Virus genome (UHGV): UHGV-0180032
Length of the DNA stretch: 64,000 nt
Reading direction: 5' to 3' (one strand)
DNA from: a virus
Shown here: one piece after another, positions 22,072 through 63,736 of the stretch
Numbering within the stretch: the stretch's first letter is position 1
How the letters are laid out: every line of letters starts with the position of its first letter
Translations under genes and position numbers: made by a program
Notes under the pieces: generated by a model
The model's database searches: none
What the model saw: the letters and a program-made list of their open reading frames with translations, nothing else
What the model was told of the DNA's origin: nothing

Positions 22072-22107
22072 AGATATATATTACCTTAGTGAGATTACGC
22101 TGTAATC
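22072..22107 (+). promoter_or_regulatory. phage promoter motif (AGATATATATTACCTTAGTGAG) plus dyad gattac-N5-gtaatc
   Basis: One of five copies of the motif; contains TATATTAC; sits ~40 nt upstream of ATG 22145. Confidence 0.45.
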
Positions 22108-30203: not shown

Positions 30204-30327
30204 TACTCGTAAATGCGTCTTAGACGCTGTTTTACACCTTAAGACGATTAATGGTGTTTAAAAAATAAAAGGTCGTCAGAATGCGATACAGCGCGTTTTA
30301 GAGGGTGATTTAATTAAAATATTTTCA

Positions 30328-30366
30328 GATATATATTACCTAGGTGAGAGAATTACGTAATACTCA
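30328..30366 (+). promoter_or_regulatory. phage promoter motif (AGATATATATTACCTAGGTGAG) plus palindrome ATTACGTAAT
   Basis: Second copy of motif; 10-bp perfect palindrome 30352-30361; ~30 nt upstream of ATG 30397. Confidence 0.45.
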
Positions 30367-31486: not shown

Positions 31487-31645
31487 ATGAAACATGAACA
31501 GTTGTTTCAAAGGTTAAACGAGTTGTCCGTAAAACAGCTCGAATTTCAACGAAGGGTTAGTGAAATAGCGCAACCAACGTTAACTCAGCCCAAAGTTGCT
31601 TACCCAAGAAACACCCAGTTGATAGTTGAAAGGAGAAGTAACTGA
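31487..31645 (+). CDS. small protein, tandem paralog 1 of 3 (52 aa, ends ERRSN)
   Basis: ATG with AGGAGAA 6 nt upstream; paralogous to the next two small genes; G-rich hairpin follows; below ORF-track size cutoff. Confidence 0.45.
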   Translation: MKHEQLFQRLNELSVKQLEFQRRVSEIAQPTLTQPKVAYPRNTQLIVERRSN

Positions 31646-31799: not shown

Positions 31800-31967
31800 A
31801 TGTTCGACAGTATTACGCAAATTTTTAATACTACCGTAAACAATCACGCTCAGCAAGCGAGGTTTAATGAACGACTAAGAGAAGTTCAACAATTAGGATT
31901 AAATAAAAGATTAAATTCTTCCAATAATCCTCGAGTACAGATCTTCACCGAAAGGAGAAGTAACTGA
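31800..31967 (+). CDS. small protein, tandem paralog 2 of 3 (55 aa, ends ERRSN)
   Basis: ATG with GAGG upstream; shares Q.FN...RFN.R...LGL pattern with paralog 3; hairpin follows. Confidence 0.45.
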   Translation: MFDSITQIFNTTVNNHAQQARFNERLREVQQLGLNKRLNSSNNPRVQIFTERRSN

Positions 31968-32065: not shown

Positions 32066-32137
32066 ATGAACGATACGGTGCCAACGCATAAAGACGTTGG
32101 CGTTTCTTACAACGTTACTAAAGGTAATGAAAAATGA
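32066..32137 (+). CDS. candidate 23-codon leader ORF translationally coupled to paralog 3
   Basis: ATG with AGAGGG upstream; stop TGA 32135-32137 overlaps ATG 32134-32136 of next gene; begins with the same ATGAACGAT as that gene. Confidence 0.3.
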   Translation: MNDTVPTHKDVGVSYNVTKGNEK

Positions 32138-32304
32138 ACGATTATCAATTACAGATGTTTAATGCGGCGATGCGTAACCGTGAAAAACAAATTCAGTTCA
32201 ACCAACGCATGGATGAATATGTTCGTCTCGGTCTTGTTGCGGCACCTAAAACATCTAATAACCAGAATATACAGCAACCCTATGTAAGGAGAACTGGCTA
32301 CTAA
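32134..32304 (+). CDS. small protein, tandem paralog 3 of 3 (56 aa, ends VRRTGY)
   Basis: ATGA-coupled to upstream leader ORF; AGG-AGA pair near stop as in paralogs 1 and 2; G-rich hairpin 32316-32337 follows. Confidence 0.45.
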   Translation: MNDYQLQMFNAAMRNREKQIQFNQRMDEYVRLGLVAAPKTSNNQNIQQPYVRRTGY

Positions 32305-36897: not shown

Positions 36898-36910
36898 CTA
36901 TTATTTTTTG

Positions 36911-49569: not shown

Positions 49570-49609
49570 AACCTCTACCTTCGGGTAGAGGTTTTCTTCT
49601 TTTTATTTT
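49570..49609 (+). terminator. rho-independent terminator
   Basis: stem aacctctacc/ggtagaggtt with ttcg loop, then a T-run. Confidence 0.75.
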
Positions 49610-49653
49610 ACAATTTTTGATCATACTGTGAGACTTGAACATGGAGACTTATC

Positions 49654-50307
49654 ATGGAACCACTACGTTTAATGACCAGAACGCTACTGATTCCTATCTG
49701 GGAATTGAAGCTTACCCCATTGCCTGCCTCTAATGGGGAGTTCATCGATTTTATTAAAGACGAAGAATTTGTGTTGACGGCTTTCCAGGAGACGCTGCAT
49801 CGTTACTATAATGCGGTGCCTTTATCTGGCGGATTAGATTGCCCTGGTGTAGAAGGGAGTACGTCTGCGTTAATCGCAGAGTGTTTAGAACAGAAAGGAA
49901 TTGGGGTTGGGAAAGGTCGGGTTTATGTGGACGCTGATAAACTGAGGAGTTACCAGATTGAGCTGACGTTTCAGATAAGAAGATTACTTACCCAGTACGG
50001 TCTTTTCTCAATTAACTGTAAGGTTGATGACGTACGGATGTTAGACCACGGTTTTACCACCACCCTCAAAACTTGTCGCGGTAAAAGATTCGTACAGTTT
50101 GCGTGGTGGGTCCCGGTATTGCGTGGTGAGAGAAAAACGGTGGAGGGGTTGTACGGCTGGGCGCTATGGAGCGAGGTTCCAGTAAATAAACTCGATGCGG
50201 TTATTCCAAAGCACCGAAACGTTCCGCTTAGCAGTTTATTTACTTCCGGCGAGAACACTACGTGGGCTGAATTCGTTAATAACGTTATGTCAATTGGGGA
50301 ACAATAA
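49654..50307 (+). CDS. hypothetical protein (217 aa)
   Basis: ATG with GGAG 7 nt upstream. Confidence 0.65.
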   Translation: MEPLRLMTRTLLIPIWELKLTPLPASNGEFIDFIKDEEFVLTAFQETLHRYYNAVPLSGGLDCPGVEGSTSALIAECLEQKGIGVGKGRVYVDADKLRSYQIELTFQIRRLLTQYGLFSINCKVDDVRMLDHGFTTTLKTCRGKRFVQFAWWVPVLRGERKTVEGLYGWALWSEVPVNKLDAVIPKHRNVPLSSLFTSGENTTWAEFVNNVMSIGEQ

Positions 50308-50783
50308 TGCAGCAGTTAGATATTACTGAAGACAAAATCTCCGCTAAATTTCCACAATTACGTGAATACATCAAGGACTTAAACTCGATACGCGAATCAC
50401 CTGTTCGCATTACCTTAGCGGTAGAAGACGATATTACGCACGGTATTGCGATTTGGGAACCGGGTAATCTTATCTATTTGGTGGTGGCGGAAGGTTCTCG
50501 GCGTTTCGGTGTGGGTTCGTTCTTATTGCAGTACGTTCAGTTAAATTCCGATCGTCAAATGGTGACGTGTCGTGTCCACCCATCGAACATTGACGGTCTG
50601 TGTTTCTTTTCGAAAAAAGGCTACCAGATTGACCGTTGGTATATCGCCAGCGACTCTCGTCGGTATTTTCGTATGACGAACGGTAACGTTGTTTCGTCAT
50701 ACGCCCCGCCGGAAGAAGGATATTTGGTGGATTTTATCGAAAACACGCCCATCTTTCTCTCTGTTGCGGATAAAATTTATTAA
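50307..50783 (+). CDS. GNAT-family N-acetyltransferase
   Basis: GNAT motif A-like SRRFGVGSFLLQYV and motif B-like NIDGLCFFSKKGYQ. Confidence 0.6.
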   Translation: MQQLDITEDKISAKFPQLREYIKDLNSIRESPVRITLAVEDDITHGIAIWEPGNLIYLVVAEGSRRFGVGSFLLQYVQLNSDRQMVTCRVHPSNIDGLCFFSKKGYQIDRWYIASDSRRYFRMTNGNVVSSYAPPEEGYLVDFIENTPIFLSVADKIY

Positions 50784-53889: not shown

Positions 53890-55023
53890 ATGTCAACGTT
53901 AGATAGCGACTTAGAAGTGCTTTGTGACGATTACGACCGACTCGTAGCGTTAGAATCCATTGGAGTAAAAGATAATTATCCGGCTATCGTTGCTATCCGT
54001 AAACGTTGGCTTTTGGATGATGTGGTTGTTGCGTCAGAGTCTGCGGCCATGATGCACCGTGCACAGTTTTTGTCAGACACGGAACCTGATAAAGGGATAG
54101 GCAAAGCGGCGGCGCGACTCACCGGACGTGCGGTTCGTGGCGTAAGTCGGGTAGCAGGACGTGCTGCCAGTGCAGGTGCAAAAGCATCCGCGAACTTTGC
54201 AGGTAAACATTCCAAACAACTTGCTCTACGTTTTGTGGATTTTGCTGAAGCTGCCGGTAAAGAAGTCATTAAGGAATTAAAAGAAGCGACGTCTAAAGCG
54301 ACGACCTTAGAACGCAAACTGCAAAAGTTAAATGCACGTTTAAGTTTAATCGGTGACAAAGACACCTTAAAACCGGTTGACTGCGACACGGGAAGCTGGA
54401 CGACCAAAGTTTGTTTAGAAGACAAACCTAACGTAAAAGCGTGTATTGAGTTCAGTAAGAACCTGAGCGCAATGGATGCGATGGTCAACGAGTATACCGT
54501 TAAAACGCGCACCATTATCGGTAAGAGCAAGAAAGTTACTGAGAGTGGCTTGGAGAAAGTAGGCCGGTCGACGAACTGGGCGATTAAACGTAGTGCAGGG
54601 TTGTTCGGTATTATCGATCCGTTTAAAACGGTGAAAGCGTATCCGTGGCCAGGTAACGTGGTGGTCGTTGAACACGACAACGGTAAGATTGAGTGGGCGA
54701 TTGCCCGTGATGGTGATTTTGGCCACACAATCAAATCTCTGAACTTACACGAAATCGGTTCAGCTCTCGAAGCCGTTGAAAAAATTATCCGAGCTTTACG
54801 TCAGCGTGGTACGAAGCGACGTAGCGTTGGTTATACCGGTATTTACGATGAAGTTCAGCGAATGAAAAAAGAGCTGAAGTCGTTAGACGGTCGTGAGTTA
54901 CGTGACGCTACCGTTCGGTATAAGAACGCACTGCGTTTAGAAGATGCGTTTACTACCTCGTTAGTGCGTGTTGCGGAAGGCTTACTGGAATGGTGCAGGT
55001 TGTCGCTGATTGAGGTTAAATAA
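53890..55023 (+). CDS. hypothetical protein, tandem paralog B (377 aa)
   Basis: Paralogous C-terminal ~220 aa to 52999..53883. Confidence 0.65.
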   Translation: MSTLDSDLEVLCDDYDRLVALESIGVKDNYPAIVAIRKRWLLDDVVVASESAAMMHRAQFLSDTEPDKGIGKAAARLTGRAVRGVSRVAGRAASAGAKASANFAGKHSKQLALRFVDFAEAAGKEVIKELKEATSKATTLERKLQKLNARLSLIGDKDTLKPVDCDTGSWTTKVCLEDKPNVKACIEFSKNLSAMDAMVNEYTVKTRTIIGKSKKVTESGLEKVGRSTNWAIKRSAGLFGIIDPFKTVKAYPWPGNVVVVEHDNGKIEWAIARDGDFGHTIKSLNLHEIGSALEAVEKIIRALRQRGTKRRSVGYTGIYDEVQRMKKELKSLDGRELRDATVRYKNALRLEDAFTTSLVRVAEGLLEWCRLSLIEVK

Positions 55024-55490
55024 TGCGCATCACTATTATTCTCAAACCCGACAGTAAATACGGAAAGTTATACGGCGACCAGGTACTCAAACTGCACAAC
55101 ATGTTGTTCGCAGAAGAGAAGGTGCGTATTAGTCAGTTAACTGGACGTGATACGTTCAACCCCATCGAACGTTTAGAAGAGATTTGGCCTCAAGATTATC
55201 TCTGTGCGTGTGCGGTGGGTGACAACGAACAGCTTCTGGGTTTTATGACGTTCTCATTGGGTTCTTGCTCAAAAGACACGTTTGTTTACATCGGGAATTA
55301 CTATGTGATTCCTGAAGCACGCTCTCAAGGGGTAGGGCGTGCGCTTATGGACAAAGTCCGTGAATACGGAAAGTCCAAAGGTTGTGGTTGGATGAGTCTG
55401 GATGTGTTAGACAACAACGTTAAAGCTATCTCCTTGTATGAGAAAATGGGATTCCGTACCGAATGCAGGGAAATGATAAAGGAAATCTAA
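55023..55490 (+). CDS. GNAT-family N-acetyltransferase
   Basis: ARSQGVGRALMDKV (R-x-x-G-x-G/A) and NNVKAISLYEKMGF motifs. Confidence 0.65.
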   Translation: MRITIILKPDSKYGKLYGDQVLKLHNMLFAEEKVRISQLTGRDTFNPIERLEEIWPQDYLCACAVGDNEQLLGFMTFSLGSCSKDTFVYIGNYYVIPEARSQGVGRALMDKVREYGKSKGCGWMSLDVLDNNVKAISLYEKMGFRTECREMIKEI

Positions 55491-57063: not shown

Positions 57064-57159
57064 TCCTAAAATTTATTACAACCAATAGCTATTATGTGAA
57101 CGCCGGTATGGAATAAAGAAGTATCGGTTTAAATTTTTGTGCGTAAAGGTAAAACAATA

Positions 57160-57828: not shown

Positions 57829-57866
57829 AGATAGATATTACCTTAGTGAGATTACGCTGTAATCTC
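57829..57866 (+). promoter_or_regulatory. phage promoter motif (AGATAGATATTACCTTAGTGAG) plus perfect inverted repeat GAGATTAC-GCT-GTAATCTC
   Basis: Near-identical over ~75 nt, including 5' UTR, to the copy at 22072; ~35 nt upstream of HTH gene ATG 57902. Confidence 0.5.
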
Positions 57867-58282: not shown

Positions 58283-58966
58283 ATGGCACCGAGAACTAAG
58301 AAAACCGAAGTTAAAGAAGCCGTAGAAAAACCGGTTGATACTAAGGAAGCGGAAGTTAAGCAGACTGAGCCTAGCAAGAAGCTTGCGCTTATGCCGCCTG
58401 CCACAGAAATACACGGGGATAAAATCTTAAGTTACACTCCGCGCGCGAGTTTAACGATCGATATTTACCATTACCCAGTATTCGACCTGTACACGCTTGT
58501 CTGTCGACTCGACGATGAGATACTGGCAGTCGTGCCAGGCATCCACAAAGAAAAACTGCTTACGGGTTCAGTCATTAGCGAGATTTTCCTGCGTTTGATG
58601 TTTAAATCAGACGATAAGATGATCAGCCAGATTGCTAGTAAATTGACTGACTTCTTTGTTGAGGCTTCAACGTGGTTAGGCTTTCACCCAACGGCTTATT
58701 TCGTTTTCGACACCAAAATGTTGTATGCTGAAATGGGTGATAGTGTTAAGTATCCTATCTTGCTTAATGAAGAAGTCGTTCCGTTTTCCCTTACCAGTCC
58801 TAACAAACATCTTCGCTTTCATCCGGCGTTAGAAAGCCTGATTGAATACAATCGGTTGGAAAAATATTACGCTTATCATCGCATGTTCTTTGAACTTCTG
58901 CGTGATAAATTAAGAGGAAAAGTTCCAGATTCTAGTGCGGCATTCACTAGTTCTAAGCTTTGGTAG
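58283..58966 (+). CDS. hypothetical protein (227 aa) with Lys/Glu-rich N-terminus
   Basis: ATG with AGGAG upstream; terminator follows. Confidence 0.65.
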   Translation: MAPRTKKTEVKEAVEKPVDTKEAEVKQTEPSKKLALMPPATEIHGDKILSYTPRASLTIDIYHYPVFDLYTLVCRLDDEILAVVPGIHKEKLLTGSVISEIFLRLMFKSDDKMISQIASKLTDFFVEASTWLGFHPTAYFVFDTKMLYAEMGDSVKYPILLNEEVVPFSLTSPNKHLRFHPALESLIEYNRLEKYYAYHRMFFELLRDKLRGKVPDSSAAFTSSKLW

Positions 58967-58979
58967 TTTGTAACAAACA

Positions 58980-59007
58980 GGGAGCTTCGGCTCCCTTTTT
59001 CTTTTTA
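58980..59007 (+). terminator. rho-independent terminator
   Basis: stem gggagc/gctccc with ttcg loop, then tttttctttt. Confidence 0.7.
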
Positions 59008-59052
59008 CAACTTTTTCTTTTGTTGTGAGGAAAGCCGATAAGGAGTATTAAA

Positions 59053-60039
59053 ATGGTATATCGTAAAACGATAGAAAGAACCTCTTCTGATTTAACCGTA
59101 GGACGCTTAGCCCGTAGAGATATTCGCAATCCTCAACTTCAGGAATGTTTAACGGGTCCCAACGGTGCGGTGATTCGTGAAGCGCTGTGCAATACCGAGC
59201 TGAATACGTTCTCTTTACAAAAAGGAAAAACAATCCAAGGGTTTATCATCACAAAACACATTTACGGTGACCCAACGTTACACTGTTTGTATATGCATGA
59301 AATTGTACCTGGGTGTTTGAACAAACTGAGCCTTCTATTGGTACTTGACTATACGGGTTTTACGTACCTTAACCGAATTGCCAGAGGTGTGGAAGAAATT
59401 GCCGAGCTTAACGATTTAGGGTTTAGACATACCCGCACAGCATATCGTTTAGGTACACGTACGTTATCGGATGTCACTTTACCGACGAACGTGAAGAACG
59501 TCTCCGGCGATTTCTATAAAGACTTAACCGGAGCACAACGTGAACAGCTCATGATGTTGTTTGGCACTAGCGTCGTTGAAAACATCAATGCTGACCCTGT
59601 ATCGCGTTCTCGACAAATAATGCCGCAAGTTGAAACATTGGTGGAGTTAGTGCGACACGTCAATCACTACACTTACGTTTGGATGGACGGTAATGACGTC
59701 GTGGGTGTGGTGCAAGTTAAATCACGTAATCTTAGTGAGTGCGAACTAAAAGCCATTGCGGTAAGTGAATCACATCGGGGTCGTGGGATTGGGCGTGCGT
59801 TGTTGTACCGTGCTTTACAGATTGCATCGACAACAGCAGCGCCATTAGAAATAGGGTGTTACAATAACAACCCAGCATTTAGACACCTGGCCGTAGATTT
59901 GTTTAAATTCCGTCCCTACGAGTACGAATTTGTTTTAGTGCGCGACGACGATGTCGTCAGTTGGGAGCGTCGGAAAAACCGCGTCGAGTTAGTGTTAGGC
60001 AACGAAATGTCATCGTTACAAGGCGGAATTAATGCATAA
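59053..60039 (+). CDS. two-domain protein with C-terminal GNAT acetyltransferase domain (328 aa)
   Basis: C-terminal SHRGRGIGRALLYRAL GNAT motif; ATG with AAGGAG upstream; overlaps Dam start. Confidence 0.6.
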   Translation: MVYRKTIERTSSDLTVGRLARRDIRNPQLQECLTGPNGAVIREALCNTELNTFSLQKGKTIQGFIITKHIYGDPTLHCLYMHEIVPGCLNKLSLLLVLDYTGFTYLNRIARGVEEIAELNDLGFRHTRTAYRLGTRTLSDVTLPTNVKNVSGDFYKDLTGAQREQLMMLFGTSVVENINADPVSRSRQIMPQVETLVELVRHVNHYTYVWMDGNDVVGVVQVKSRNLSECELKAIAVSESHRGRGIGRALLYRALQIASTTAAPLEIGCYNNNPAFRHLAVDLFKFRPYEYEFVLVRDDDVVSWERRKNRVELVLGNEMSSLQGGINA

Positions 60040-60847
60040 ACCAATTATAAAGTGGATGGGTGGCAAATCGCGGATTATCGACACCTTACTACAAGTCTTA
60101 CCTGAACGTACCACTTTCGTTGAACCGTTTGTTGGAGCAGGGTCAGTGTTTTTGAACACACGTTATAAACGTTACATTCTTGCTGACTCTAACCCTGACT
60201 TAATCCAGTTGTTGAATGTGGCAAAAGACCAACCTGAAGAACTTATCTTAAAGTCGAAACCACTATTCGAAGACGGCAACGATTGTATTAAGTATATGGA
60301 GAGACGAGAACTGTTTAATCGCGAAACGGATATGGCTCCGTTAGACCGGGCAGCGATGTTTCTGTACTTAATGCGTCACGGTTTTAACGGGATGTGTCGT
60401 TACAACGGTAGCGGCGGATTTAACGTTCCGTTTGGTCGCTATCCTAACGGTGTGTATTACCCGTTAGAAGAGATTCGTGGATGGGCTAAACGTTGTCAAG
60501 AACCGGAATACTTAGAAATTGTTTGTGAAGATTTCCGAACAGTTTTAGAACGTACACCGGAAGACAGCGTGATTTACGCAGACCCACCGTATATACCGCT
60601 CTCAGAGACCGCTAAACACGCACAATACCATCGGAAGGAGTTTTCCCAGGCCGACCATCGAGAACTCGCCAGAGCGCTGTTTAAGCAGGTTGAGAAAGGG
60701 AATAGCGTTGTGTTGTCCAATGCGGATACGTTACTAACGCGTGAGATTTATTACGGTTTTGAATGGCGTTCTGTGGAAGTAGGACGGTATATGGGTGCGT
60801 CAGGTGCTGCTCGTAAAACGGTAACGGAATTGTTAGGAGTGCTCTAA
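60032..60847 (+). CDS. dam: Dam-type DNA N6-adenine methyltransferase
   Basis: KWMGGKSR, FVEPFVGAGSVF (AdoMet binding) and catalytic DPPY in ADPPYIPL. Confidence 0.8.
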   Translation: MHKPIIKWMGGKSRIIDTLLQVLPERTTFVEPFVGAGSVFLNTRYKRYILADSNPDLIQLLNVAKDQPEELILKSKPLFEDGNDCIKYMERRELFNRETDMAPLDRAAMFLYLMRHGFNGMCRYNGSGGFNVPFGRYPNGVYYPLEEIRGWAKRCQEPEYLEIVCEDFRTVLERTPEDSVIYADPPYIPLSETAKHAQYHRKEFSQADHRELARALFKQVEKGNSVVLSNADTLLTREIYYGFEWRSVEVGRYMGASGAARKTVTELLGVL

Positions 60848-61620
60848 TGCGTATAGTGGATATCCACGATTATCGTAATGACCATTTAGCGATTGGTGTC
60901 GAAGGGAAAATGGTTTCGTTAACCCGTGTACGCAAAGGGTTAATGGAAAAGGAAATCATTCGGGAATCTGAAGACCCCACCTTTATCATCCTTTCGAACA
61001 CTAACCAGTTACAGGGTATCTTTTCAGGGCGTGCTGACGGTAAGATTTTCTATATGTCCGCAATCGTTGTGTTTGCGAAGAAGAACATCAACTTCGCCCA
61101 ACTCAAACGTTTGTTAAACGTGAAGATGTTTGACGTTACATACCCTGCTAATGACCTAAAACGCCGTGATCAGTTAATGGCGTTTTTGGGTATGCAACCA
61201 ACGTCAATCGATTATGACCTTACGATTACTGAAAAGCCGGAAGTGCGCACTGACTTACCTGACGTGGTCGACGTTGAATCCCTAACGTTAGAAGAGACGT
61301 TTACGATTCCTAAGGTTGTTAATGTCAACCTGGACACGCACTGTTTAGGGTTGTTAGCTGTAGGTGCAGCAGAAGGGTTGTGTTGTCGTAAAGACGGTAA
61401 GGTTGAAGGAATCTTAGTCTATTCGAAAATCAACGAAAAGACGTTTGCCACCGAAGGCTTTTTCTATAACGAGTGTACTTACGGAAACGCGCTACTGACC
61501 ACGTATTTCCGTATTGCTTATCTGAAAGGCGCAACTGTTCGCCTCACGTTTCCATACACAGCACCACCGTCTATGGGTGGAGTTGAGGTAGAACCACTAA
61601 CAGGCCACTTTATCTTTTAA
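60847..61620 (+). CDS. hypothetical protein (257 aa)
   Basis: ATG overlapping Dam stop. Confidence 0.65.
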   Translation: MRIVDIHDYRNDHLAIGVEGKMVSLTRVRKGLMEKEIIRESEDPTFIILSNTNQLQGIFSGRADGKIFYMSAIVVFAKKNINFAQLKRLLNVKMFDVTYPANDLKRRDQLMAFLGMQPTSIDYDLTITEKPEVRTDLPDVVDVESLTLEETFTIPKVVNVNLDTHCLGLLAVGAAEGLCCRKDGKVEGILVYSKINEKTFATEGFFYNECTYGNALLTTYFRIAYLKGATVRLTFPYTAPPSMGGVEVEPLTGHFIF

Positions 61621-61629
61621 GGATGATGA

Positions 61630-61857
61630 ATGGAAATCAAACGTATTGTAACCAAAAACAAACAGATTGTTTACGTCGCGGGTGATAACGAATTCTCGGC
61701 GGTAATCAACAGCGAAAATGTGCTCGTTATCGGTTATCCGGGTAAAGTTATTACGCGCAGTCACCAACGTGTGATTGACAAACTTATCGCAAAAGCGAAA
61801 GCGCGTGACGGTGTTGGTTCAGTACAAACCCACACGGGGTTAACGCTGGCCCTCTAG
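61630..61857 (+). CDS. hypothetical protein (75 aa)
   Basis: ATG with GGATGA upstream. Confidence 0.5.
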   Translation: MEIKRIVTKNKQIVYVAGDNEFSAVINSENVLVIGYPGKVITRSHQRVIDKLIAKAKARDGVGSVQTHTGLTLAL

Positions 61858-61896
61858 TCAGCAGGTAATATGACCTCTTAACTGGAGACTTTAATA

Positions 61897-62403
61897 ATGA
61901 GTGAGACTCTGGATTTTAATCAGCTCGAACAACACGATTTCGACCTCGGTGTTCGTGATATCGATGCTGATCATGAAACACGTTGTAAAGAGCTGTTTAA
62001 CCGTTACGGTCAGCTCATCACCGGTGCATCTGACGACACCGAATTCAGTTTAGATGAGTTTGAAAAAGTTCTGTCGTGTTTTATCACTGACTGTCTGGCG
62101 AAGAAAGCGTTGCTGGTCGAACTGAACTTAGACTCCGTCGAACCTACTGATGCTCATGCTGTGTTGAAAGAATCCATTATCCCAACCGATGAGATTATGG
62201 ACACTGTCGCAGGTATTCGCGGTACGTTTGAAACTGCCGTAGAAGAATACACGGAACAGCTTCGTGAATCAGGACTGACGTTGTGTGCGCCAGCAGGTGA
62301 ATCATTACCGTCCGACGAAGAAACTGAAGAAGCGCGTAGTCGCTTAGCGCGTTATGTTATTACGTCTATCTTGGTAGATGATCGCGAAGAGAATCTGCTA
62401 TAA
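61897..62403 (+). CDS. strongly acidic protein (168 aa)
   Basis: Roughly a quarter of residues are D or E; last gene of the GNAT-Dam operon; terminator follows. Confidence 0.65.
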   Translation: MSETLDFNQLEQHDFDLGVRDIDADHETRCKELFNRYGQLITGASDDTEFSLDEFEKVLSCFITDCLAKKALLVELNLDSVEPTDAHAVLKESIIPTDEIMDTVAGIRGTFETAVEEYTEQLRESGLTLCAPAGESLPSDEETEEARSRLARYVITSILVDDREENLL

Positions 62404-62407
62404 GCTG

Positions 62408-62446
62408 CCCCTCTCTCCGTTTGGAGAGAGGGTGTATTTATTTTTA
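62408..62446 (+). terminator. rho-independent terminator
   Basis: stem cccctctctcc/ggagagaggg followed by tgtatttattttt. Confidence 0.7.
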
Positions 62447-62919: not shown

Positions 62920-63189
62920 ATGGCTAAGATTTACATTGTTGAAAAACGTTCAGGTAATGTTCTTTCTTATCACGAAGAAGGTAAACCCGAAAAAGTTAAA
63001 ACGCTCAAGCTTGAAGGTTTTGATGTGAAAAGCCTGCGTAAAGGCGTGAAGATTACTTTCAAAGGTTTGATTCGTGCAGGTAACTTACACATCATCAAAA
63101 CAGATGGAACGATGGTTGCGTTAGCACCGGCCACCGCTGCGAAAACGACAGCCGGTCGTGGTTGCTACGGCAGCAGTCGTAAGTTTTAA
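62920..63189 (+). CDS. hypothetical small basic protein (89 aa)
   Basis: ATG with AATGGAG upstream; terminator follows. Confidence 0.55.
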   Translation: MAKIYIVEKRSGNVLSYHEEGKPEKVKTLKLEGFDVKSLRKGVKITFKGLIRAGNLHIIKTDGTMVALAPATAAKTTAGRGCYGSSRKF

Positions 63190-63195
63190 GCAGTG

Positions 63196-63234
63196 CCCCT
63201 CTCTCCTAGCGGAGAGAGGGTACTTTTATTTTTC
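63196..63234 (+). terminator. rho-independent terminator
   Basis: stem cccctctctcc/ggagagaggg (same arms as 62408) followed by tacttttatttttc. Confidence 0.7.
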
Positions 63235-63247
63235 TTCGAGGTGTGCG

Positions 63248-63736
63248 ATGACAACGGTATTGGTAACAAAGGATTACATTTTAGCCGATCGGTTGGTTGA
63301 TTACGGCGGTACAGTTAAAGAGCTTCCTAAATTACACAAATACAAAAACAAATTCGTTGTTTACACTGGGGAACGTGTATTGGACTCGGATCTCTGGAAA
63401 ACGATGATAATATCCGCAGCAGAAAAATATTTGATTGAAGAAAAGCGAACTAAAGTTGAAGGGATATTTAAAGATCTTATCGAAAAAGAACGACTTTTCG
63501 ATCAGGTTATTATTTTTACAGCTAAGGAAACGTTTTGGCTAGGGTTGGTAGCAGATAAATTTGAAGCCCACACATTGAATAAAAACACAGTTTGGGCATC
63601 GGGTTCGGGTCAAGGTTTTGCCCGTGCAGCATGGGCGTCAGGCATAGCCGAAAAGAATATCGTCCCCTTAGTAGGTTCGATTGATACAGCTTCATCACAA
63701 ACGTACGACTTGTTTTACAGGAAGCAGTTACGATGA
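63248..63736 (+). CDS. hypothetical protein (162 aa)
   Basis: ATG 63248; ORF-track start 63158 lies upstream of the terminator. Confidence 0.6.
   Translation: MTTVLVTKDYILADRLVDYGGTVKELPKLHKYKNKFVVYTGERVLDSDLWKTMIISAAEKYLIEEKRTKVEGIFKDLIEKERLFDQVIIFTAKETFWLGLVADKFEAHTLNKNTVWASGSGQGFARAAWASGIAEKNIVPLVGSIDTASSQTYDLFYRKQLR

Follow-up and report, generated by a model that had tools for sequence, protein, structure and literature searches.

A conserved five-gene operon encoding predicted tandem-GNAT, Dam and acidic proteins in an SPN3US-related jumbo phage: a probable mosaic of separate functions

Genes and boundaries of the operon

The region between positions 59053 and 62403 of the stretch of viral DNA that was analysed (64,000 nucleotides of UHGV virus genome UHGV-0180032, here termed 'the window') contains five co-directional, tightly packed open reading frames on the + strand, flanked by two terminators of the hairpin and T-run type. 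The phage itself appears to be an uncultivated Enterobacteriaceae jumbo phage of approximately 225 kb, related to SPN3US and to the nucleus-forming Erwinia phages of the Machina/Asesino type. The features of the locus are as follows.

58979..59007 (hairpin 58979-58996), + strand: upstream terminator-like hairpin and T-run, GGGAGC-TTCG-GCTCCC with tail TTTTTCTTTTT
59005..59028, + strand: 'class B' promoter-like motif TTACAA-N13-TGTGA, some 25 nt before the first gene
59053..60039, + strand: predicted tandem-GNAT protein, 328 aa, ortholog of SPN3US gp104
60032..60847, + strand: predicted Dam methyltransferase, 271 aa, ortholog of SPN3US gp105
60847..61620, + strand: predicted degenerate tandem-GNAT paralog, 257 aa, ortholog of SPN3US gp106
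61630..61857, + strand: small conserved protein, 75 aa, ortholog of SPN3US gp108
61897..62403, + strand: acidic protein, 168 aa, ortholog of SPN3US gp109
62409..62446 (hairpin 62409-62432), + strand: downstream terminator-like hairpin with T-rich tail, CCCTCTCTCC-GTTT-GGAGAGAGGG

The initial annotation of this DNA had described a five-gene operon between terminators, in which a 328-aa protein overlaps the start of Dam; both the reading frames and the hairpins in the two flanking gaps are as described, with overlaps of 8 nt between the first gene and Dam and of 1 nt between Dam and the gene for the 257-aa protein. The upstream hairpin (7-bp stem, five GC pairs) closes the preceding HTH/227-aa operon, and its identical sequence is found 5' of Dam in phage Asesino, while the downstream hairpin displays a 10-bp stem with seven GC pairs. 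The hairpin scan was overall unenriched relative to shuffled sequences (eight found, 7.1 expected); both hairpins of the operon fall exactly within the flanking intergenic gaps.

The class B motif occurs three times in the window (0.38 expected), in each case in an intergenic position directly after a terminator, and is kept in place upstream of the gp104 orthologs of SPN3US, Parshik and pEa_SNUABM_29; in Asesino it sits upstream of Dam. An AT-rich early motif, AGATATATATTACC (the concept of an early promoter being taken from PMC7598289), is present at positions 22072, 30327 and 57829, and was not found upstream of the operon in a motif scan of the window. The operon appears to be transcribed from a conserved promoter-like element, this class B motif, which is presumably of a non-early type.

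All five reading frames are real genes under purifying selection. In comparisons with two relatives (86-89% identical), four of them display dN/dS ratios of 0.03-0.12; for Dam, compared with the same two relatives, dS is saturated so that no ratio is computable, and dN is 0.14.

Properties of the encoded proteins

The C-terminal GNAT domain initially recognized in the 328-aa protein corresponds to a Pfam match (PF00583, residues 199-279; E 6e-12; 46.3 bits, cutoff 20.7), and is canonical, with an intact acetyl-CoA loop of the form R242-x-x-G245-x-G247 (R242-G-R-G245-I-G247) whose final glycine, G247, is invariant across the gp104 family. The N-terminal domain displays a degenerate GNAT fold, such that two GNAT folds are present in one polypeptide. 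Judged from its profile and from AF2 models (the models having been built on shallow alignments of 10 and 7 sequences), the protein corresponds to a classical, acetyl-CoA-type tandem GNAT similar to MshD and VipF, and the existing annotation 'GNAT' can be refined to that of a tandem GNAT. A protein of this type would act as an acetyl-CoA-dependent N-acetyltransferase; by analogy with MshD, catalysis would likely fall to the C-terminal domain, with the degenerate N-terminal domain likely contributing to the substrate site. The substrate would most likely be a protein or a small-molecule amine.

The 257-aa and 75-aa proteins had both been listed as unknowns, a description that still applies to the second, as a conserved protein of unknown function, and no longer to the first. 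The gp106 family, to which the 257-aa protein belongs, is related to the gp104 family both by profile and by a two-domain GNAT fold. A Pfam search of the 257-aa protein returned no GNAT match, its beta4-alpha3 loop is shortened (about 4 residues, YNEC, with pLDDT below 50), and the Q/R-x-x-G-x-G/A CoA loop is absent from it, the aligned positions being unconserved across the family. Profiles and models identify it as a paralog of the 328-aa protein that has diverged, lacks the motif, and is probably either non-catalytic or uses another ligand; having lost the CoA-binding loop, it would probably function as a pseudo-enzyme or as a partner subunit. Because the two families are paralogous, the clade would carry an array of two to three double-GNAT genes, and the SPN3US gp106 family, previously hypothetical, gains an annotation as a motif-less tandem-GNAT paralog. 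The 75-aa protein matches phrog_7896 (E 7e-22), is 43-55% identical to its orthologs in SPN3US and Asesino, is approximately 20 codons shorter than orthologs of 92-98 aa, and displays a dN/dS of 0.05-0.07; its ortholog in Cronobacter phage CR5 (CR5_102; hhalign 98.8%) adjoins the GNAT array there.

The Dam-type DPPY methyltransferase noted initially is borne out by a match to the D12 N6-adenine methyltransferase family (PF02086; E 1e-57; 195.9 bits, cutoff 22; spanning residues 8-250 of 271) and by a full-length alignment to the structure of E. coli Dam (2g1p; E 1e-63), in which its AdoMet motif FxGxG (FVGAG) and catalytic DPPY (ADPPY) both align. Five of the seven GATC-recognition residues are identical to those of E. 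coli Dam (K9, N120, R124, N126 and P134), and the two changes at contact positions (L122 to M and Y119 to F) are conservative. In PADLOC, its best-scoring model is 'orphan methyltransferase'; no restriction-endonuclease model there was matched by the five operon proteins or by the upstream 227-aa protein. By homology, the enzyme is almost certainly an E. coli-type, GATC-specific orphan methylase, and would methylate GATC adenines in the phage DNA. Of the DNA-modification module that had been proposed for the locus, one part stands (a DNA-modifying enzyme is indeed encoded), and the other, a dedicated hypermodification machine, is not supported.

The last gene product, described at first as about a quarter D/E, contains 23.8% of these residues, with a net charge of -26 and a pI of 4.15, and is, at 3.4 SD above the mean, the most acidic of the 66 proteins predicted in the window. 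This acidity is kept across seven phages that represent five or more genera (net charge -21 to -26, pI 4.1-4.3). The protein matches phrog_8221 (E 2e-56) and is 41.7% identical over its full length to SPN3US gp109, which occupies the same position, and 56% identical to Parshik gp122; searches of Pfam, PDB and PADLOC gave no match, the best PDB E-value (0.47) being to an unrelated Cas7. SPN3US gp109 (17.7 kDa) was detected in purified virions by mass spectrometry, with 93% coverage, and was assigned to the head, where it is moderately abundant, whereas gp104-gp108 are absent from the virion protein list (PMC5694885). The mass of SPN3US gp109 agrees with that of the 17.7 kDa head protein. The acidic protein thus belongs to a family of head proteins verified by mass spectrometry, a new annotation for this locus; a role as a head component, shown for the SPN3US ortholog, would extend by inference to this phage.

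Conserved gene order and independent inheritance

Collinear orthologs of the operon genes are found in Seoulvirus, Machinavirus, Wellingtonvirus and Erskinevirus. Gene order and orientation are those of the window in SPN3US (gp104-gp109; SPN3US_0104-0109), Parshik (gp117-122) and Asesino (gp121-125), and the SPN3US-like relatives further share the upstream neighbourhood (Tmk, HTH) and the promoter-like motif. Amino-acid identity to SPN3US is 29% for the GNAT, 68% for Dam, and 24%, 43% and 42% for the gp106, gp108 and gp109 orthologs, respectively; DNA identity to SPN3US and to the Erwinia relatives is too low for megablast. Unlike SPN3US, the window lacks an ortholog of gp107, such that five genes are present rather than six, and the overlap of GNAT and Dam is particular to this phage lineage, a 30-nt gap separating the two genes in SPN3US.

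The content of the locus differs among relatives. In Asesino, Dam, gp106, gp107, gp108 and gp109 are present and gp104 is missing from the locus. In CR5, two gp104-like GNATs are followed by a 295-aa protein, gp108, an insertion and then gp109, and no Dam was found in the whole 224-kb genome. The gp109 family is represented in 62 phage records (Dam-less CR5 included), Dam in approximately 53 jumbo-phage records (at the syntenic position, 49-73% identical) and gp104 in 48. On this comparison of sequences, GNAT and Dam are not co-inherited, and the position of Dam between GNAT paralogs is confined to a subclade. The pattern indicates that Dam is a later insertion, outside any GNAT pathway; it would have been inserted between the GNAT paralogs in one subclade and exchanged since by recombination. 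The saturated dS of Dam, set beside values of 0.6-0.9 for the flanking operon genes, was counted as mosaicism of Dam.

On balance, the region is a genuine five-gene operon, and probably a syntenic mosaic in which separate functions lie side by side without forming a single pathway. The maintenance of the GNAT-Dam-gp106 order across several genera, together with translational coupling in this phage, could reflect a functional link. The locus nevertheless looks like a product of conserved gene order, and not like a dedicated machine for DNA hypermodification or anti-restriction. It is an ordinary accessory cassette, of which the GNAT and Dam are already annotated in public records of SPN3US-like phages.

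Alternative readings and known systems

Among tetramers, only one is more depleted than GATC, and palindromes of six letters are likewise avoided (p = 4e-10). Such strong avoidance of GATC and palindromic hexamers extends, with or without Dam, across the nucleus-forming phages of this clade, which are supposedly shielded from restriction, an observation that may be of more interest than the operon itself.

An alternative to a mosaic of separate functions is that the locus centres functionally on Dam, which would act in anti-restriction against enzymes of the MboI/DpnII type, which cleave GATC when it is unmethylated, or in protection from host MutH, with the remaining genes as unrelated passengers. 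The retention of GATC-contact residues in an E. coli-type Dam and the lack of a cognate endonuclease nearby are consistent with this reading, as is the fact that the hosts of the clade are all Dam+ Enterobacterales; it is a classical finding that methyl-directed mismatch repair counter-selects GATC in enterobacteriophages. GATC depletion is also weaker in the window and in SPN3US (observed/expected ratios of 0.41 and 0.36) than in Dam-less CR5 (0.17). However, Dam-carrying Erwinia phages, with ratios of 0.17-0.20, are as depleted as CR5, which argues that Dam gives no relief from selection; moreover, the operon is presumably not early, GATC sites display no regulatory-looking clustering, and restriction-modification systems meet a physical barrier in nucleus-forming phages (PMC12908238). 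Dam as the core of the locus is therefore considered unlikely.

A second alternative, developed from the initial suggestion that the acidic protein is a DNA-mimic anti-restriction factor, holds that this factor (or an anti-defence factor of the same kind) travels in the head, leaves it together with the DNA and guards the genome until an early vesicle or nucleus has been built. Its acidity, the strongest in the window and conserved across orthologs, would suit such a role, as would the presence of a moderately abundant ortholog in the SPN3US head, and the avoidance of palindromes and GATC shows that the clade does feel restriction pressure. Against it, no sequence similarity was found to solved structures or to Pfam, PADLOC or PHROG functional families (including Ocr and ArdA), and the early-promoter motif is absent. 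Within the operon, only Dam is better conserved than the acidic protein (identities of 36-59%, where the GNATs show 20-30%), a pattern more in keeping with a structural partner than with an arms-race factor. A DNA mimic, for which no known counterpart was matched and whose ortholog is a virion head protein, is accordingly regarded as improbable. Were it correct, nucleus-forming phages would possess a virion-delivered, Ocr-like function that blunts restriction, other nucleases and sensors, and the otherwise puzzling avoidance of restriction sites in the clade would be accommodated.

That both tandem-GNAT-fold proteins might instead be dupli-GNAT transferases using aminoacyl-tRNA or long-chain acyl donors (FemX-, MprF- or NMT-like), rather than acetyl-CoA enzymes, is very improbable.

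Least credible is the view first put forward for the locus, that the GNAT-fold proteins and Dam jointly hypermodify adenine against restriction, through Mom-like N6 acylation or through an acylation that is added to m6A or takes its place. It draws on the overlap of an acyltransferase-fold gene with the start of Dam, the second GNAT-fold paralog after Dam, the conservation of the GNAT-Dam-gp106 order in Seoulvirus, Machinavirus and Wellingtonvirus, and the existence in other jumbo phages of GNAT-superfamily enzymes that modify DNA bases (PMC7824862). The 328-aa protein, however, carries the acetyl-CoA loop in its classical form and is similar to MshD, VipF and WecD; Asesino possesses Dam and, at the locus, no GNAT, and CR5 possesses GNAT paralogs and no Dam at all; the GNAT/Dam overlap is not conserved; and strong avoidance of GATC and palindromes is unexpected for globally hypermodified DNA. 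Neither the 328-aa nor the 257-aa protein matches the Pfam Mom family (PF25680) at E <= 1, a search in which Mu Mom itself, as a positive control, scored 2e-75, and alignment of the 328-aa protein to Mu Mom by hhalign gave a probability of 0.17%; the 328-aa protein is not a Mom relative. That Dam appears to be a later insertion spares effort on the hypermodification hypothesis.

The link between Mom and Dam in phage Mu is regulatory, not chemical; likeness of the window to that system is limited to a distant GNAT-superfamily fold and to Dam in the biology, and the phage differs from Mu in that no Com-like translational activator is present, and that GNAT is retained independently of Dam (CR5) and Dam independently of GNAT (Asesino). 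The phage Dam shares the D12 class and the FxGxG and DPPY motifs with E. coli Dam and DpnM, but is only about 43% identical to enterobacterial Dam and is encoded in a GATC-depleted genome. The 328-aa protein resembles the tandem GNATs MshD (1ozp), MAB_4324, Legionella VipF (6wqb) and WecD, at just 10-14% identity; it differs from MshD-type enzymes in that conservation within the phage family is highest at motifs of the N-terminal domain (GDPTL and LDYTGF), and that the second gene downstream encodes a motif-less paralog. The acidic protein shares small size and high net negative charge with Ocr (T7 gp0.3) and ArdA, and is set apart from them by the lack of a detectable sequence relationship, by its presumed place outside any early transcription unit, and by an ortholog that resides in the virion head.

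Organization and inheritance of the operon

Each of the five open reading frames (ORFs) that the initial annotation had placed on the plus strand is present, and each is preceded by a Shine-Dalgarno-like sequence. The products are named here after their orthologs in Salmonella phage SPN3US:

58979-58996, flanking intergenic gap: upstream terminator-like hairpin, T-rich tail
59053-60039, + strand: ORF, tandem GNAT (acetyltransferase-fold) protein, 328 aa, gp104 ortholog
60032-60847, + strand: ORF, Dam (N6-adenine methyltransferase), 271 aa, gp105 ortholog
60847-61620, + strand: ORF, GNAT paralog, 257 aa, gp106 ortholog
61630-61857, + strand: ORF, small protein, 75 aa, gp108 ortholog
61897-62403, + strand: ORF, acidic protein, 168 aa, gp109 ortholog
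62409-62432, flanking intergenic gap: downstream terminator-like hairpin, T-rich tail

The 328-aa ORF overlaps the start of Dam, as originally described, by 8 nucleotides, and the Dam and 257-aa ORFs overlap by 1 nucleotide. The proposal that terminators bound the operon was likewise borne out by hairpins with T-rich tails in both flanking gaps; while such hairpins are not enriched across the window (8 versus 7.1 expected), these two sit exactly in the intergenic gaps, and a hairpin identical to the operon's also stands ahead of the orthologous operon in the Erwinia jumbo phage Asesino. Comparison with two relatives (86-89% protein identity) gave dN/dS values of 0.03-0.12 for four of the five genes; for Dam, dS was saturated and hence yielded no ratio, with a dN of 0.14. 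These values therefore establish all five as real, constrained genes. Scanning the window for Rfam families and tRNAs returned no matches, and a literature search found no paper on the function of gp104-gp108.

A megablast search with the operon as query produced no match in 50,697 phage records, and its relatives were recovered by protein-level searches only. No near-identical phage genome was found in GenBank; an IMG/VR contig matches the window at 100%, three viral contigs (approximately 221-225 kb) match it at 86-98%, and assemblies that carry the labels E. coli and Shigella also contain close protein relatives. At the protein level, the neighbourhood is collinear with those of SPN3US (Seoulvirus) and of Erwinia Machinavirus, Wellingtonvirus and Erskinevirus phages, in the shared order of internal head protein, small GNAT, three hypothetical genes, thymidylate kinase, HTH protein and then the operon. 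In SPN3US, gp104 is a GNAT and gp105 a Dam, while gp106, gp108 and gp109 are orthologs of the remaining three products; the window lacks a counterpart of gp107.

Within this conserved order, the GNAT, Dam and gp109 genes are not co-inherited: gp109 is carried by 62 phage records, Dam by approximately 53 and gp104 by 48, and the start-stop overlap of GNAT and Dam is not conserved (a 30-nucleotide gap separates them in SPN3US). The Asesino locus consists of a terminator and a promoter-like motif followed by Dam-gp106-gp107-gp108-gp109, with no gp104 there. The genome of Cronobacter phage CR5, assembled to completeness, contains no Dam homolog in any part; beside its thymidylate kinase lie two tandem GNATs of the gp104 type, each with a CoA loop (hhalign 97.6-97.7%), followed by a 295-aa protein and the gp108 ortholog. 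The acidic gp109 ortholog is found beyond an insertion of approximately 9 kb (97-106 kb) that harbors thymidylate synthase (thyA), mazG, an Arn.3-like protein and other genes, which shows that the genes of the 'operon' need not stay together. In the simplest history, an ancestral array of double-GNAT genes with gp108 and gp109 later received Dam in one subclade. The operon is real, and the best reading is that independent functions sit together in conserved synteny. Its GNAT and Dam annotations are already in public records; the tandem architecture, the gp106 paralogy, the history of Dam insertion and the tie to the SPN3US virion proteome are new here.

Several further features of the region were recorded. 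Downstream of the operon (63158-63736) lies a homolog of an HslV-like peptidase (phrog_1040), and the matching region of CR5 carries annotated genes for an HslV-family peptidase and an HslU-domain ATPase. Three tandem paralogous small ORFs of 52, 55 and 56 aa (31487-31645, 31800-31967 and 32134-32304, + strand) share a pattern resembling ...Q..FN.R..E...LGL...ERRSN; a GC-rich hairpin-like sequence stands 3' of at least two of them, and all three fall within a 1-kb stretch that has no ORF longer than 60 aa. Experiments have shown that Asesino forms a phage nucleus (PMC11724907). The 652-aa ORF, checked as a candidate chimallin, was negative against Pfam and PDB.

The tandem GNAT protein and its paralog

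Word-indexed protein searches yielded almost only relatives at least 86% identical, so that the alignments used for structure prediction were shallow. The AlphaFold2 model of the 328-aa protein (10 sequences; pLDDT 81, pTM 0.75) displays two successive GNAT folds. The C-terminal domain, already recognized as a GNAT and now matched by PF00583 (residues 199-279, E 6e-12), contains a canonical acetyl-CoA pyrophosphate loop (R242-G-R-G245-I-G247) together with motif B; the N-terminal domain is a degenerate GNAT, yet harbors the most conserved motifs of the family, GDPTL and LDYTGF. The pairing of this protein with Dam had been likened to the Mom/Dam system of adenine hypermodification in phage Mu. 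The Pfam Mom family (PF25680), which finds Mu Mom at 2e-75 as a positive control, gave no match to the 328-aa protein, and profile comparison with Mom returned a probability of 0.17%; kinship with Mom is rejected on these grounds, and Mom-like hypermodification is not supported. The protein is best read as a predicted acetyl-CoA tandem-GNAT enzyme.

The 257-aa protein, initially listed as unknown, is paralogous to the 328-aa protein but degenerate. Across 196 columns in collinear order, profile-profile alignment related the gp106 and gp104 families at 68-86% probability (E 5e-6 to 5e-5); each remaining neighbouring family scored below 13%. By hhalign, gp94, gp96-gp99, gp102, gp103 and the upstream 227-aa protein were not GNAT-like, and the gp107 family showed no significant relation to those of gp104 or gp106. 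The AlphaFold2 model of the 257-aa protein (pLDDT 77) gives independent matches to two-domain GNAT proteins, in which 157-191 residues align. Because its CoA-loop position is occupied by a short, low-confidence and non-conserved loop, the protein is probably non-catalytic or has another ligand. An exhaustive phmmer search against 1.84 billion representatives gave six matches, none tying it to a named family, and the gp106 family is very narrow. BFVD matches to the 328-aa model include many proteins of 214-289 aa from the same Erwinia phages, an abundance that suggests that double-GNAT proteins have expanded specifically in this clade.

GNAT-fold genes are unusually many in this clade. A 155-aa GNAT (PF00583, E 9e-19; 55023-55490) adjoins a phiKZ-type internal head protein (PF12699; 53890-55023); in SPN3US the ortholog of this GNAT, gp95, is itself among the virion proteins. 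A weak GNAT match was given by a 158-aa protein (50307-50783).

The Dam methyltransferase and GATC avoidance

The assignment of the 271-aa protein as a Dam enzyme with a DPPY motif was upheld: PF02086 spans it (E 1e-57), DPPY is accompanied by FxGxG, and the whole protein can be aligned with E. coli Dam (E 1e-63), five of whose seven GATC-contact residues are identical and two conservatively changed. Its best model in the PADLOC defence database is "orphan methyltransferase"; across the operon proteins and the upstream 227-aa protein, no restriction-endonuclease model was matched, and matches to defence-system models were to methyltransferases only. Syntenic orthologs (49-73% identity) occur in approximately 53 jumbo-phage records, after which the nearest matches are enterobacterial and prophage Dam proteins (approximately 43%). 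Saturation of dS in Dam, as against 0.6-0.9 in the flanking genes, suggests that the allele was replaced through recombination. Immediately before the operon, the 227-aa protein (58283-58966) retains only 39% identity in close relatives where its neighbours retain 86-93%; at 58283-58966 and 60032-60847, comparison of close relatives thus shows the locus to be a mosaic. The 271-aa protein is best read as an inserted orphan Dam with predicted GATC specificity.

Only one tetramer is more under-represented in the window than GATC (119 observed versus 289 expected, O/E 0.41), and hexamer palindromes show class-wide avoidance (median O/E 0.86 versus 0.99, p = 4e-10), eight of them, such as CTGCAG and AGTACT, being absent. 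This avoidance is the mark of unmodified, restriction-exposed DNA, not of globally hypermodified DNA. The phages that show it are nucleus-forming ones, thought to be physically shielded from restriction. For GATC it is clade-wide (O/E 0.17-0.57) and independent of Dam carriage, in a comparison that covered the window, six further loci and the assembled CR5 genome.

Dam carriage and GATC representation in related phages
Phage; Dam; GATC O/E
CR5 (whole genome); no; 0.17
Parshik; yes; 0.18
pEa_SNUABM_11; yes; 0.17
Asesino; yes; 0.20
SPN3US; yes; 0.36

A relaxation of GATC avoidance by Dam is rejected, since the Dam-positive Erwinia phages are depleted like the Dam-less CR5, as is a grouping of leftover sites like that of the P1 pac site, since they show no clustering in the window.

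The acidic protein and the timing of expression

The product of the last gene, about a quarter acidic residues, had been judged compatible with a DNA-mimic anti-restriction protein. The acidity was confirmed (23.8% D/E, net charge -26, pI 4.15; the most acidic of 66 proteins predicted in the window) and is kept in seven phages of at least five genera (net -21 to -26, pI 4.1-4.3); with 36-59% identity, the protein is the best conserved in the operon after Dam. The protein had no match in Pfam, PADLOC or PDB-profile searches. SPN3US gp109 (17.7 kDa) is a virion protein assigned to the head (PMC5694885 Supplementary Table 1), with 93% sequence coverage and a rank of approximately 17th in normalised spectral counts (PMC5694885); the numbering is confirmed because the computed mass of SPN3US_0109 is also 17.7 kDa. 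The SPN3US virion also contains gp94, gp95 (the small GNAT), gp97 and gp98 (PMC5694885), while gp104-gp108 are absent from its protein list (PMC5694885 Supplementary Table 1). The 168-aa protein is best read as an acidic head protein, its location taken from the SPN3US ortholog; a virion-delivered DNA-mimic role is possible but unsupported. A partnership with the basic 75-aa protein was rejected, the basic character of the latter not being conserved (pI 6-10) and CR5_118 being unrelated.

Two classes of promoter-like motif in intergenic regions bear on expression; SPN3US and Erwinia phages retain both at the orthologous sites. Class A (AGATATATATTACC followed by GTGAGA) lies at 22072-22085, 30327-30340 and 57829-57842, with weaker copies at 36910 and 62866, and is consistent with the AT-rich early promoters (virion RNA polymerase) described in RNA-polymerase-encoding jumbo phages (PMC7598289). 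Class B (TTACAA-N13-TGTGA) has three matches in the window versus 0.38 expected, each directly after a terminator:

49608-49631: class B copy, which includes a GATC
57076-57099: class B copy
59005-59028: class B copy of the operon

The position of class B is conserved before gp104 in SPN3US, Parshik and pEa_SNUABM_29, and before Dam in Asesino. From these motifs, the operon appears to be a non-early (middle or late) transcription unit, a timing that agrees with its inclusion of a head-protein gene and that speaks against an immediate-early role in the style of the anti-restriction protein Ocr.
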